DNA of 64,000 bases from a virus (IMGVR_UViG_3300010376_000032:13173-77172), one strand, 5' to 3'; shown: positions 1 to 62,066, counted from the first letter of the stretch. Notes: generated by a model not told the origin, from the letters alone. A program made the numbers and translations.

Positions 1-1
1 C

Positions 2-334
2 CTCGCCGGACTGCTGAGCCAGGTCCATGGCCACATCGCTGACCTGATAGTTGCTGTGCATCTCCTGCGCCCGAGACATGAGGGGATGGTCCTCCGGCAG
101 GCCGACATGGACGTTGGCCTTGTCGCCCCATACCTGGAAGGCGCGGCCCACATCCTGGTAGCTGGCCAGGCTGGAGTCGCCACGCACCAGGTTCCGCATG
201 TCGGCTCGTAGAGATCCGGCTGCCTTCGTCGCCGCCGCCCTGACCTGCCGCTCGTTGAGCTTGCCGTATTGCTTTGCGGTTCTTTCCAACCTGCTGAGGT
301 CAGATTTATTGACGCAGCTAAATACGGAGGACAT
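2..334 (-). CDS. Partial hypothetical protein running off the window edge (possible tail-completion protein)
   Basis: ATG at 334 preceded by GAGGAG RBS; frame stays open to the edge (MSSVFSCVNKSDLSRLERTAKQYGK...); not in the ORF track. Confidence 0.6.
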   Translation of the reverse strand, partial: MSSVFSCVNKSDLSRLERTAKQYGKLNERQVRAAATKAAGSLRADMRNLVRGDSSLASYQDVGRAFQVWGDKANVHVGLPEDHPLMSRAQEMHSNYQVSDVAMDLAQQSGE

Positions 335-35876: not shown

Positions 35877-38249
35877 GTGCCGTCGCAAGCCGCCACCGTG
35901 ACCAGAAAGGGAGAGAGGCTGGACCCGCCCCCAGCCTCTCTCCTCCATGGGCTGAAGTGTGACATTGCCTGGATAACACCGGGGAGAACAGAGGGCGTCT
36001 GGAACTATGGGCCAGGGGCGCAACATCGGCGCTGCGTCTTGGCCCTGGACCATGCAGGTGACCACGACACCGGAGAAGGGCAACGAGACAGGAACGAGGT
36101 TCGCCGCTCCAGATATAAGTGGGGGAAGCGCACCTTCACCGACGAGCAGGTTGCACGATCCGAAGCCATAAGAGCCAAGTGGAACCGGATGGGGCAGCCC
36201 CAGCCGTCCGATGCCGTCCGCTCCTACGTCGCGTTTGAAGCCTGGGTGGAGGGCCTGGACGAGAAAAATCCTCCACGGGAGCAGGGCGGCAACGCCGTTC
36301 CCACCATCACCACCCTCGACCAGCTAAAAGAAGTGGTGGACATCTACACGAATTTCTCCGAGTTCGCATTCGATGTCGAGACGCGAGGCAACCGGAGAGT
36401 CCACGGGCTGCAACCGGGGCGCCGGGTGCTATCAAGATACGGAGAACAGACCACTCCGTGCCTGGCCTGCGGCACTCCCCTGCCCACCAGGCGGCGGGCC
36501 TACTGCTCCGACCTGTGCCGCAAGGCCGCAGACAAGGACAAGCCCGCCCTTGACGCCAGGACCAACGAGGTCTGGTGTATTTCTCTCGCTGGCCCTGGCC
36601 GTGCTGATGTCATACCCATCGGGCATCCCGACAAACGCCAGCAGCTACGCCGCGCCGATGTCTTCAACGCCCTGGAGCCGTTGTTCTTCTCGGAGCGAAA
36701 GAAGATCGGCCACAACGTGGGGTTCGACCTCCTGTCCGTATCCAAGTACTACGACGGCGGGATCCCACCACCGCCTTATGGCGACGTGATGACCGCCGCC
36801 TTTCTTCTGAACGAGAACCTGGGTAGCTACAAGCTGGGGGTGCTCAGCCAGCGCTACTGGGGCTACACCTACAGCGAGAAGCTGGGTGAAGAGGCGTACA
36901 ACGTGGAGTGGCGGCGGGCCATGCGGTACTCGATGCTCGACGCCCGCAATGCCTGGCTGCTCTGGTACAAACTGGCCCCCAGGTTGAAAGGAAAGCTGTC
37001 GGAGCTTTTCACCCTGGAGATGCAGGTGCTTCGGGTACTACTCGACATGCGGTGTAGTGGGGCCTACGTGGATGTGGAAGGTTTCCGCAGGCTGAGGCCC
37101 ATCCTGGAGGAGCAACTACGTGTCCTGGGCGCGGAGATCCAGACCATGGTCGAACCGGTCTGGGACCAGCCCACCCCGCTCAACCTGAACAGCACCCATC
37201 AACTGGGTCACTATTTCTACGACCTCCTCAAGCTGCACCCTCCCAAGTTCACTGAGTCCGGCCTGCGCTCCACCGACGCCGACACCCTGCGGATCCTGGC
37301 CCGCCGTCACAAGGCCCCGGCCAAGATCCTGTCCCACAAGGACGTGTCCAAGCTGCTGTCCACCTACGTGGTCGGGTTCATCCCCACCATCGATGACGAC
37401 TCGCGGATCCGTGCCTCCTTCAACCAGGCCGTGGCCAAGACCGGGCGCCTCTCGTGCTCGCAGCCCAACCTGCAGAACATCCCGGCCCGCTACCGCGAGA
37501 ACACCGAGGGCACCATGATCCGACGCATGTTCGTGGCGCCGCCAGGCAAGGCGCTCATCGTGGCCGACTACAGCCAGATCGAGCTACGCATCCTGGCCCA
37601 CCAGACCAGGGATCCCCGGCTCCTCTACGCCTACACCCATGGTGAGGATCTCCACACCATGACGGCTTCGTTGATCTGGCGCATCCCCATGGACCAGGTG
37701 GACCCCGAGCGACGGGCCATCGCCAAGAACTCCAACTTCAACTTCGCCTTTGAGGGCGGGCCTGGCCGGGTGGTGGCCATGTCAGGCATCCCCATGAACC
37801 AGGCCCAGGAGGTCTACGACGGCTGGCACCGGGCCTACCCGGGTGTGAAGCGTTGGGGTAGGCAGATCAAGCGGTTCTGTTGGGAGCACGGTTACGTCGA
37901 GACGCTCTACGGGCGCAAGCGGCGCTTGCCCGAGATCTCCTCCTCAGACATGAGGGAACGGTCCTATGCCGAACGGCAGGCCGTCAACCATCCCATCCAG
38001 GGCACCGCCGCCGACATCGCCAAGATCGGCATCGTCCAGGTCCACCGGGCGCTGGCCGAGTTCCACGCCACCCTGACCTTGCAGATCCATGACGAATTTG
38101 TCATCGAGTGCGCCGAGGACGAGGTGGAGGACGCCATACCGTTTATCAAGGCCGCGATGGAAGACATCCGGCTGGGGGACCGTCCGGTCCTGGACGTGCC
38201 CCTGGAGGTGAACATCGGAGTGGGCATGAACTGGGCTGAAGCGAAATGA
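35877..38249 (+). CDS. polA: DNA polymerase family A with 3'-5' exonuclease
   Basis: DVETRG, HNVGFD, YSMLD exo motifs; TGRLSCSQPNLQNIP; ADYSQIELR; IHDE. Confidence 0.92.
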   Translation: MPSQAATVTRKGERLDPPPASLLHGLKCDIAWITPGRTEGVWNYGPGAQHRRCVLALDHAGDHDTGEGQRDRNEVRRSRYKWGKRTFTDEQVARSEAIRAKWNRMGQPQPSDAVRSYVAFEAWVEGLDEKNPPREQGGNAVPTITTLDQLKEVVDIYTNFSEFAFDVETRGNRRVHGLQPGRRVLSRYGEQTTPCLACGTPLPTRRRAYCSDLCRKAADKDKPALDARTNEVWCISLAGPGRADVIPIGHPDKRQQLRRADVFNALEPLFFSERKKIGHNVGFDLLSVSKYYDGGIPPPPYGDVMTAAFLLNENLGSYKLGVLSQRYWGYTYSEKLGEEAYNVEWRRAMRYSMLDARNAWLLWYKLAPRLKGKLSELFTLEMQVLRVLLDMRCSGAYVDVEGFRRLRPILEEQLRVLGAEIQTMVEPVWDQPTPLNLNSTHQLGHYFYDLLKLHPPKFTESGLRSTDADTLRILARRHKAPAKILSHKDVSKLLSTYVVGFIPTIDDDSRIRASFNQAVAKTGRLSCSQPNLQNIPARYRENTEGTMIRRMFVAPPGKALIVADYSQIELRILAHQTRDPRLLYAYTHGEDLHTMTASLIWRIPMDQVDPERRAIAKNSNFNFAFEGGPGRVVAMSGIPMNQAQEVYDGWHRAYPGVKRWGRQIKRFCWEHGYVETLYGRKRRLPEISSSDMRERSYAERQAVNHPIQGTAADIAKIGIVQVHRALAEFHATLTLQIHDEFVIECAEDEVEDAIPFIKAAMEDIRLGDRPVLDVPLEVNIGVGMNWAEAK
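35910..35943 (+). terminator. 13-bp stem-loop at the SSB/PolA junction
   Basis: GGAGAGAGGCTGG-N8-CCAGCCTCTCTCC; no U-tract. Confidence 0.45.
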
Positions 38250-56858: not shown

Positions 56859-57536
56859 TCACACAAGCGTAGGTAGCGAGCCGCGACGGACGTTCGCCGT
56901 CTGGAGGAAATGGTCCTCGTCATGGCGGATCTCGATCATCTGCATCAGCCAGGCATCGCCCTCCGGCAGCATCTCGTAGAAGCCGTCCCGGCCAGGCGCC
57001 CCACGGGGGTGACAGCAGAGGCGGGCCTGGAGGCTGCCGTCCGGCTTGAGCAGGTCGACGTTTCCACTTTGACCTTCCGCTCTGATGCAATAGCGACGGC
57101 CCCGGCTGCCGGTCACGAAGAAGCGACCGTGGTGTTCCAGTTCGGCCTTCTGCTCGTCATCAAGGAACTCACCCAGGAGCGAACGGGCACGAGCGCGAGC
57201 CGCGCTGCGGCGCTCCATCCGCTCGCGGTTCTGGCGCTCGTAGACCTCCCGGGCGGCACGAAGCTCGTCTGGAGTCTGGACCGTCTGACCGTAGGTGGTG
57301 ATCGTGCCCTGACCCATCTGGATCCACTGGCCCCACACCTCGTTGGAGTAGGTGGGCGTGTAGATCGTGGTGTTGGCGCTGGTGGTGATGGTGGTGGCGG
57401 TGTTCCAGTTCGACCAGGACAGGTCCGTGGTGGTGTAGCTGCAGTTCTGGGTCCAGGGGTAGTTGGTGGTGACGTAGTTCGTGGTGGTGGCCGTGGTGGT
57501 GTAGTACTGCTGCGGCCAGTAGGTCTGGGCGGGCAT
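56859..57536 (-). CDS. Partner protein: Thr/Trp-rich N-terminus + conserved-looking Cys-His domain
   Basis: TGATG coupling; ARARSLL..FL..EQ...GSRGRRY...GNV...LCCHP...DAWLMQ...DEDHFLQTAN. Confidence 0.65.
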   Translation of the reverse strand: MPAQTYWPQQYYTTTATTTNYVTTNYPWTQNCSYTTTDLSWSNWNTATTITTSANTTIYTPTYSNEVWGQWIQMGQGTITTYGQTVQTPDELRAAREVYERQNRERMERRSAARARARSLLGEFLDDEQKAELEHHGRFFVTGSRGRRYCIRAEGQSGNVDLLKPDGSLQARLCCHPRGAPGRDGFYEMLPEGDAWLMQMIEIRHDEDHFLQTANVRRGSLPTLV

Positions 57537-57805
57537 CAGCCCCCCTGCAAAGCAGGGGCAAAAATGATCTTCTCGGCCTGGGGATCGAACTCGGTGATGC
57601 GCTGGTCCTTGTCGCCCTTGCGGGTCACCGACCACGCCTGCATACCTTTCGCCTTCATGCGATCGAACAGCGAGCGGGCCTCTTCGACCTCGACGGTGTT
57701 GTTGCGGTCCCAGATGTGCTTGGTATCGCCCGTCGAGTCGAGGATGACGATGACGCCGCCCTCGTGCTCCTCGATGCGGTTGGCCTCTGCGACCAGTGTT
57801 GTCAT
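57536..57805 (-). CDS. Small protein ending in Gly-Gly
   Basis: LDSTGDTKHIWD...FDPQAEKIIFAPALQGG-stop; AAGGAGAG RBS. Confidence 0.75.
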   Translation of the reverse strand: MTTLVAEANRIEEHEGGVIVILDSTGDTKHIWDRNNTVEVEEARSLFDRMKAKGMQAWSVTRKGDKDQRITEFDPQAEKIIFAPALQGG

Positions 57806-57990
57806 GGTTTCTCTCCTTGGGGTTGTCCTACTGGGATCTCGTTTCCTTGCTCATCGACAGGAGGGAATTTGCCCGACCCGTAGCAAGCTGGGCACACAAT
57901 CTCATTGCCGTCAACCGCGGCGATGACGTGCCCGTGCCCGTGGCAGAAGCCACACTCCCCGGCCCGGTAGTGGTCACTGGGCTTGGGCAT
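57802..57990 (-). CDS. DnaJ-type CxxCxGxG zinc-finger protein
   Basis: CGFCHGHG...CPACYGSG. Confidence 0.6.
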   Translation of the reverse strand: MPKPSDHYRAGECGFCHGHGHVIAAVDGNEIVCPACYGSGKFPPVDEQGNEIPVGQPQGEKP

Positions 57991-58324
57991 CGCAGATCAC
58001 CCGCACCAGCTTGACCGTCTCGGCGTGGCCCTCGCGGGCCTCTTCTTCGGTGGCATAGCGCCACTGCTCCAGATGAAGGTCGCCGCCGAAGATCATGGTT
58101 TCAAAGATCCTGAGCGGGCCACCTGGCATCCACTGGTGGTTCAGCCCCAGCCAGACGGTGGACACCTCCACCGGCTCGTCACCCATGATGAACACGTCCT
58201 TGCAGATGACCTTGTACGCCATGTCGCCCAGCAGCCTCGACCATTCCATCATGGTGATGGGGTTGCCCGCCTTGTCGAAATAGAGGTGCTTGTCACCGAA
58301 GTCGGGCAGGTCGGGCAGGCTCAC
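57974..58324 (-). CDS. Hypothetical protein
   Basis: VSTVWLGLNH...FETMIFGG...RYATEEEA..GH. Confidence 0.6.
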   Translation of the reverse strand: MSLPDLPDFGDKHLYFDKAGNPITMMEWSRLLGDMAYKVICKDVFIMGDEPVEVSTVWLGLNHQWMPGGPLRIFETMIFGGDLHLEQWRYATEEEAREGHAETVKLVRVICDAQAQ

Positions 58325-61355: not shown

Positions 61356-62066
61356 TTGCGTCGAACAACAGTCCTACTGTTTTCCCTCGCCGCCGTCTCC
61401 GGCGGCGTTTTGTTTACCGGTGCCTCTGCCGGGGCACAACCCCGACCAGCTATGGAGCCTGTGGTGGCAGCCAGTGATGCCGTTCCAGTTGCGGCTCCGG
61501 TGGTAGTGAGGGTGCAGGCGCCGTCCCTTCCCAAGGTCACCGTTGTCGCCGGGGACACCCTGTGGGGGATCGGCACCCGCACCCACCGGTCATGGCCAGC
61601 GCTCGCCAGCTACAACCGGATTCCCAATCCGGATCTGATCTACGTGGGCCAAGTGATCACCATCCCGCCCGCGAGCTACCAGGCTCCGGTCTACGTACCC
61701 GCTCCGGCCCCTCGCTACTCACCTCCTGTCGTCTCAGTCCAGCCGAGGCGTACTTATAGCACGTCAACGGCCACTTCGCGTGCAGCCTCCAGTGGGGGTG
61801 GAGGGTACAGCGGAGGGTACAGCGGAGGGTCGGGGGTGTGGGGCTGCATCGCCCAACACGAGTCGGGGGGCAATCCGGCCACCAATACCGGCAACGGTTA
61901 TTACGGTGCATTCCAGGACACGCTGGGTTCCTGGCAGTCGGCAGGAGGAGGCCCGGGACTGCCCTCTGACTACAGCTATAGCGAACAACTCCAGGTGAAC
62001 CAACGCATTCAAGCCCAGCAAGGTTGGGGAGCCTGGCCGGTGACAAGCGCCATGTGCGGTGCTTAA
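61356..62066 (+). CDS. rpf: Secreted LysM + Rpf-type lytic transglycosylase
   Basis: Signal peptide ending AGA; LysM (VVAGDTLWGI...NPDLIYVGQVITIP); WGCIAQHESGGN..NTGNGYYGAFQ...GWGAWP. Confidence 0.85.
   Translation: MRRTTVLLFSLAAVSGGVLFTGASAGAQPRPAMEPVVAASDAVPVAAPVVVRVQAPSLPKVTVVAGDTLWGIGTRTHRSWPALASYNRIPNPDLIYVGQVITIPPASYQAPVYVPAPAPRYSPPVVSVQPRRTYSTSTATSRAASSGGGGYSGGYSGGSGVWGCIAQHESGGNPATNTGNGYYGAFQDTLGSWQSAGGGPGLPSDYSYSEQLQVNQRIQAQQGWGAWPVTSAMCGA

Follow-up and report, generated by a model that had tools for sequence, protein, structure and literature searches.

We describe a two-gene cassette of phages, consisting of a small protein that ends in Gly-Gly and a partner protein with an invariant cysteine, as a candidate for a minimal viral protein-tagging system that may be run by host enzymes. 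We propose, tentatively and with somewhat less than even confidence, that it is a ubiquitin-like (Ubl) plus E2-like module that would use an E1-like enzyme of the host. It is very likely that the two proteins function together in a way that requires the free GG terminus and Cys174 of the partner. Directly in support are the GG in nearly all diverse members, the invariant Cys, the strict linkage and fusion of the two genes and the finding that no other gene was common to all four phage lineages compared.

The cassette was noticed in a window of 64,000 nt from an IMG/VR virus record (77 kb, 62.5% GC, 66% complete), and all positions given without a locus label are counted from the first letter of this window. 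Among the other genes of the window are a family-A DNA polymerase with a 3'-5' exonuclease domain (35877..38249, plus strand) and a LysM protein with an Rpf-type transglycosylase domain (61356..62066, plus strand; PF01476, 1.7e-12; PF06737, 1.7e-16), the latter suggesting an actinobacterial host for this phage.

Conjugation of ubiquitin-like proteins in bacteria (Bil, Bub, CBASS Cap2) has lately come to be recognized as a form of antiviral immunity. A viral counterpart among phages was not found described in the literature searched, nor did we find a paper describing this gene pair. The small protein constitutes a large unannotated family under unusually strong constraint, and the cassette has the sequence logic of a Ubl and E2 pair that comes without an E1. 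If it conjugates, phages would run minimal tagging on E1-like enzymes of their hosts, and this would supply a tagging tool made of two proteins and a fresh approach to the origin of E2-type chemistry. If it is a decoy, it would belong to a new class of proteins for anti-defence or host takeover, with E1-like enzymes as their target. In both cases, the pair merits the definition of protein families.

The small protein and its terminal Gly-Gly

The small gene (57536..57805, minus strand) encodes 89 aa. Its 3' codons read CAG GGG GGC TGA, that is Q87, G88 (57542..57544), G89 (57539..57541) and the stop (57536..57538), so that the GG ending given in a preliminary description of this DNA is borne out at 57536..57544. 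The same holds for the translational coupling to the gene for the 225-aa partner (56859..57536, minus strand): the ATG of the latter (57534..57536) shares base 57536 with the stop of the small gene in a TGATG overlap. A longer 258-aa GTG ORF for the partner is unnecessary.

Neither protein had a significant match in Pfam, PHROGs or NCBIfam. Among GenBank phages, megablast gave no match, and in tblastn searches the small protein matched two records only and the partner none. The ESM Atlas contained unnamed clusters only, which were mostly viral in the case of the small protein. Matches of the two proteins to PPR, terminase and "minor tail" families, as well as the JGI names "metallophosphoesterase" and "pentatricopeptide", were discarded as compositional or spurious.

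When 1.84 billion cluster representatives were searched with a profile, at least 2,159 clusters (at 50% identity) fell in the small-protein family at E<=1e-3, and 697 also passed E<=1e-10. The profile match extends to the final residue of the protein in nearly all family members. Conservation of the terminal GG, proposed earlier as a check on the modifier idea, held at both short and long range. All 79 near homologues (57-96% identity) end in GG. For the best 149 of the 2,159 representatives, which are pairwise <50% identical, an exact GG end was counted in 131; 12 more keep the GG internally, followed either by 1-8 residues (nine cases, e.g. GGR, GGL, GGAA and GGRWPR) or by a long extension or fused partner (three cases). 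Another three end in AG. Judged by these counts, the terminal GG is far beyond chance, and the distribution of tails, with GG ends, short extensions and fusions, reads as the pattern of ubiquitin-type modifiers and their precursors. In the most divergent homologue, from virus Rctr197k, the C-terminus reads IPG in place of GG. The small domain is present twice in tandem in P0297 (140 aa) and P0298 (191 aa), the latter without a terminal GG. Such tandem proteins recall the di-Ubl proteins ISG15 and FAT10.

The AF2 model of the small protein (pLDDT 81, pTM 0.72) has the order strand-strand-helix-strand-strand-strand, in agreement with the alternating beta/alpha character noted at the outset, and a disordered tail (residues 85-89, with pLDDT <50 for residues 87-89). 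Structural matches were protein L/G B1 domains, Ubl domains, PB1, MoaD, TtuB and bacterial Ubl, all with weak scores; the alignments with MoaD (1..81 of 81) and with TtuB run end to end, again with weak scores. In the model the fold looks beta-grasp-like, at these weak scores. As to the beta-grasp fold that had been suggested for checking, the structural matches are compatible with it, but a sequence profile link to ThiS/MoaD was not obtained.

The ThiS/MoaD profile (PF02597) did not match the small protein, searches of Pfam and NCBIfam remained empty even at E<=1, and a profile search against PDB sequences returned nothing. The tails of the small family (IIFAPALQGG, ILVPPMAGG) do fit the h-h-P-[PA]-h-x-G-G form of the last strand and tail of ThiS/MoaD, for which we extracted 18 bacterial domains for comparison (with tails such as FIPPVAGG, FVPALAGG and LLPPIGGG). 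Aligned by hhalign to these 18 domains, the small family matched over the last 14 columns only (P 0.004, probability 8.5%), and its core motifs, GD[TS]K..W and FDP.AE, are unrelated to those of ThiS/MoaD. Since the alignment is confined to the tail, the small protein is, by its profile, outside the ThiS/MoaD family; the tail alone would look familiar to an E1-like adenylating enzyme.

The partner protein and the linkage of the pair

The partner can be divided into three parts. Residues 1-88 (57273..57536, minus strand) are disordered (pLDDT 42-54), rich in T, Y, N, Q and W, and contain W-x-x-W motifs (SWSNWN, VWGQWI). In relatives this region is variable in length and always T/S-rich. Pairs of the W..W form are enriched about 7-fold in partner N-termini, with 39 observed vs 5.4 expected from composition-preserving shuffles of 22 diverse partners. 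Repeats of the form [TVIQA]-W-x-x-W-[NTVC] were seen in the window and in L010, L011, L013, L017, L029-L031 and L035; by analogy, this form recalls short Ubl-docking motifs of the AIM/LIR type (W-x-x-L). Residues 89-136 (57129..57272, minus strand) comprise a long charged helix (89-124) that may be a coiled coil and a further helix (127-136), both predicted with AF2 pLDDT values of 87-96. Coiled-coil matches to the long helix dominate the list of structural matches. The third part, residues 137-225 (56862..57128, minus strand), is a conserved and confidently predicted alpha/beta domain in which four antiparallel strands precede two helices and a last strand.

This C-terminal domain carries the Cys-His motif of the preliminary description, LCCHP, with Cys174 (57015..57017), Cys175, His176 (57009..57011) and Pro177. 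Among 23 partners that are pairwise <60% identical, no change was seen at Cys174, Pro191, Asp194 or Ala214; Asn215 and Glu207 each occur in 22 and Asn159 in 20. The expected invariance of both Cys and His therefore applies to Cys174 only: His176 is kept in 18 of the 23 and replaced by V, L or N in the other five, and no His is invariant anywhere in the domain.

Whole-domain fold matches of the partner were confined to members of the UBC superfamily, with RWD and UEV as the best, at scores too low to establish homology. With the partner model as query, Foldseek found nothing in the PDB at E <0.4, a profile search against PDB sequences gave nothing, and the UQ_con, Prok-E2_A-E, RWD and UEV profiles did not match (Pfam at E<=1 returned a spurious LTXXQ only). 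Alignment by hhalign to one Cap2-type E2 domain likewise yielded nothing; the collection of prokaryotic E2 sequences had produced 1 match in 301 Planctomycetota genomes. The domain looks UBC/RWD-like in the model, with the weak scores just given. Cys174 lies at the end of strand 4, at about the HPN position of canonical E2s, the canonical catalytic site being ~10 residues later. For the idea of an E2-type partner this means that the fold is compatible with a UBC/RWD-like domain, but that no sequence profile connects the partner to E2 families.

Co-occurrence of the two genes had been named as a further check, and it was found in every untruncated locus, from either gene and in the same order. 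Searching with the small gene, we obtained 19 viral loci, one of them on a contig that ends 189 nt after the small gene; in 18/18 untruncated loci the C-terminal domain of the partner is encoded directly downstream. Conversely, the partner search gave 17 viral loci, of which 15 are untruncated, and all 15 have a GG-terminated small gene directly upstream. A scan of 185,579 species with the small gene returned one MAG contig, on which the two genes are adjacent. At least for the patterns used, the family is essentially viral and not prophage-borne. The intergenic gap is usually -4 to +18 nt, and two in-frame fusions, P0305 (359 aa) and P0237 (238 aa), join the small protein with its GG to the partner. 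In one close relative, a 48-aa ORF (L006:8270-8416) lies between the GG gene and the partner gene, coupled at both ends.

The pair loci span 38-66% GC, on contigs of up to 235 kb. In distant loci nothing besides the pair is conserved in the neighbourhood, and the neighbours are varied and non-structural (PD-(D/E)XK nuclease, SPFH, VWA, DHFR, DnaB_2). We compared the ORFs of four unrelated complete or near-complete phages (89-235 kb, 49-64% GC) and of the record containing the window by all-against-all BLAST. At E<=1e-5 the small protein alone was common to all four lineages, and at E<=1e-3 the partner was added; DNA polymerase A, common to three of the four lineages, was the only such family besides the cassette. 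At these thresholds, nothing else that the compared phages share is as conserved as the small protein. As only the cassette families are common to four unrelated lineages, we regard the two-gene cassette, on this sequence comparison, as self-contained and horizontally mobile. In Rctr197k (L020, KX853510.1; 4321-4575 and 11539-12198), the divergent cassette is located between two annotated CRISPR arrays and transposase-like genes.

Proposed mechanism and alternative readings

ThiF (PF00899) and Prok-JAB (PF14464) were absent from the record of the window (66% complete) and from five genomes that are 83-100% complete, while both models were detected in control genomes. The earlier statement that no E1/ThiF or JAB gene is visible in the window is hence borne out for its record and extends to five near-complete relatives. 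The cascade is incomplete on the phage side, and any activation must be host-derived or use other chemistry.

In the reading that we favour, gene 1 would provide a beta-grasp-like protein of ~75-90 aa whose functional element is the flexible tail with a free Gly-Gly carboxylate like that on the tails of MoaD, ThiS and ubiquitin. Gene 2 would provide a disordered, T/S-rich N-terminus with W-x-x-W motifs, a long helix and an alpha/beta domain of UBC/RWD-like topology, in which Cys174 at the end of strand 4 may be flanked, in space or sequence, by the invariant Asp and the near-invariant Asn and Glu. A host E1-like adenylating enzyme of the MoeB/MoeZ/ThiF class would activate the terminal glycine of the small protein, and the acyl group would then pass to Cys174 as a thioester, the partner acting as E2-like carrier. 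The N-terminal region of the partner or its helix might select the target, which could be a host or a phage protein; fused forms would need a protease for release. The fold classes, host activation, the thioester and conjugation are all what we infer. Evidence against the E2-like reading comprises the lack of a phage E1 or JAB, of profile similarity to ThiS, UQ_con or Prok-E2, the non-canonical position of the Cys, the variable His176, the IPG end in Rctr197k and the need of the fused forms for a protease. A wider version of the proposal holds that the phage supplies only the Ubl tag and the E2-like carrier, that the universal sulfur-carrier E1 of the host (MoeB/MoeZ/ThiF) is thereby made to tag host or phage proteins or that Bil, Bub or type II CBASS is jammed, and that this first protein-conjugation system of prokaryotic viruses, made of new families, spreads horizontally; taken as a whole we consider it doubtful.

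Among known systems, type I Bub offers a close parallel. There, a Ubl is fused to an E2 (BubAB) and cleaved after a conserved Gly, and BubB has a compact non-canonical UBC fold with an active site of Ser-x-His plus Asp (S333-x-H335, D299) (bioRxiv 10.1101/2024.11.21.623953). In the phage pair, too, the gene for the Ubl-like protein immediately precedes, or is joined to, that for a small domain, with the fusions P0305 and P0237 paralleling BubAB; C174-x-H176 plus D194 resembles the BubB constellation, the Ubl-like protein likewise terminates at a conserved Gly, and the E2 or candidate E2 domain has ~115-135 aa in both systems. However, Bub operons always encode BubCD (a JAB-E1 fusion) or an E2-E1 fusion, plus the BubE protease, whereas six phage records were devoid of ThiF and Prok-JAB and only the two cassette genes were common to four lineages. 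Moreover, Bub uses Ser and oxyester chemistry, but the phage nucleophile would be Cys. Sequence or profile similarity between Bub and the phage pair was not detected, the phage partner adds the W-x-x-W/T-rich disordered region and the long helix, and the module is viral rather than bacterial. Bacterial E2-like proteins lack the classical HPN His; they have a His C-terminal to the Cys, or a Cys replaces the His of HPN (PMC1779556, Iyer et al.); the Cys-x-His of the phage partner resembles the former arrangement (PMC1779556).

Bil (BilA-D) and type II CBASS Cap2/Cap3 are alike in that a beta-grasp modifier or a substrate with C-terminal Gly is passed to an E2-like Cys. They are host defences with their own E1 and JAB peptidase, in contrast to the phage-encoded pair, which comes without E1 and is unmatched by Prok-E2 or Prok-JAB models. 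With MoaD, ThiS, CysO and TtuB the small protein shares the single domain of ~65-95 aa and the free P-[PA]-h-x-G-G end, but not the PF02597 match or the core motifs, and the pair lacks a partner of the MoaE, ThiG or CysM type. TtuB, SAMP and Urm1 also act as protein modifiers, with an E1 only. In the TAPI proteins of lambda and T1, a phage beta-grasp domain with a conserved C-terminal glycine is predicted to be released by cleavage; this Ubl domain is paired with the gpK JAB-NlpC peptidase in a tail-assembly cluster (PMC1779556), whereas the pair described here resides in variable non-structural neighbourhoods, with a Cys-domain partner and no JAB gene. Finally, RWD and UEV domains have no catalytic Cys, in contrast to the invariant Cys of the phage partner.

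The best-surviving alternative, which we rate as rather unlikely, is that the pair acts non-covalently or as a decoy: the GG tail would mimic a substrate and plug a host E1-like enzyme without acyl transfer. Targets might be the housekeeping enzymes MoeB, ThiF or MoeZ, or the E1-like enzyme of Bil, Bub or type II CBASS; the partner would be a scaffold or E2 mimic, and its W-x-x-W motifs docking sites. This would agree with the lack of a phage E1 or DUB, with the movement of the module among unrelated phages, a behaviour typical of accessory and anti-defence genes, and with the exceptional conservation of the small protein relative to other shared genes, which suggests contact with a conserved host factor. 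The enrichment of W-x-x-W motifs and the fact that RWD and UEV, the best whole-domain matches, are non-catalytic Ubl binders point in the same direction. Binding alone, however, poorly explains an invariant Cys and Asp together with near-invariant Asn and Glu, offers no explanation for a stop exactly after GG in ~88% of diverse members, and an inhibitor of this kind was not found documented in the literature searched.

We consider it improbable that the cassette is a sulfur-carrier pair, in which a host E1-like enzyme would form a thiocarboxylate at the C-terminus of the small protein, as for MoaD, ThiS, CysO and TtuB, and the Cys174 domain would accept or use the sulfur, e.g. for thiolating a nucleic acid or metabolite needed by the phage. 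Size, beta-grasp-like fold and the h-h-P-[PA]-h-x-GG tail do match bacterial MoaD/ThiS, the structural alignments with MoaD and TtuB run end to end, and for known carriers a host-type E1-like enzyme is sufficient, without an E2 (PMC1779556). Yet profile similarity is limited to the last 14 columns, the partner is unlike MoaE, ThiG, CysM and PP-loop thiolases, its disordered W/T-rich N-terminus and long helix would be unusual in a biosynthetic enzyme, and genes of sulfur metabolism are not linked.

Still less probable, to the point of being quite unlikely, is a GG-specific cysteine peptidase that would cleave after Gly-Gly, either to process small-protein precursors that are fused or extended, or to strip host Ubl conjugates from phage proteins. 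Fusions and short extensions after GG exist and need processing, and most partners have a His close to the invariant Cys; but for most small proteins, whose end is GG already, processing is unnecessary, and a peptidase fold or family was not matched. In a protease dyad the His would not lie just two residues beyond the nucleophile, His176 varies as described and the other His positions vary as well, which argues against a protease, and we rejected this reading of the partner. A double-glycine leader or RiPP precursor was also rejected, the two products being normally separate ORFs.

Upstream zinc-finger genes and wider neighbourhood

Directly upstream of the small gene of the window lies a gene for a 62-aa zinc-finger protein with CxxCxGxG motifs (57802..57990, minus strand), which overlaps the ATG of the small gene by 4 nt (ATGA coupling). 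Its Pfam matches are below cut-offs (DUF5351, 1.5e-5; Anti-TRAP, 4e-5; DnaJ_CXXCXGXG, 1.7e-3). The preliminary description had considered this DnaJ-type zinc finger as a possible adaptor. As a conserved third component it was rejected, with homologues found upstream only in the closest relatives (L001 and L004); it is possibly an accessory component that is not conserved.

Elsewhere, though, unrelated zinc-ribbon genes recur at this position. Proteins with at least two CxxC motifs are encoded directly upstream of the small GG gene in ~12 of 26 loci, representing ~5 independent lineages, against a background of ~4% of genes in the pair loci. They are zinc-ribbon or DnaJ-like fingers of several unrelated families, some with TM segments (57802..57990 of the window, L004:7000-7227, L006:7726-8004, L010:7775-7984, L012:7458-7715, L029:2995-3567, L030:2803-3456, L031:2330-2899 and L035:2224-3195). 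In P0294, a Cys-rich N-terminus is fused to the GG domain. These CxxC proteins may be a variable third component of the cassette, e.g. with an adaptor or E3-like role.

Upstream of the zinc finger of the window, a 116-aa protein without family match is encoded at 57974..58324 (minus strand). A homologue of 122 aa is present in an unrelated 190-kb phage (G003), ~22 kb away from the GG cassette of that phage.
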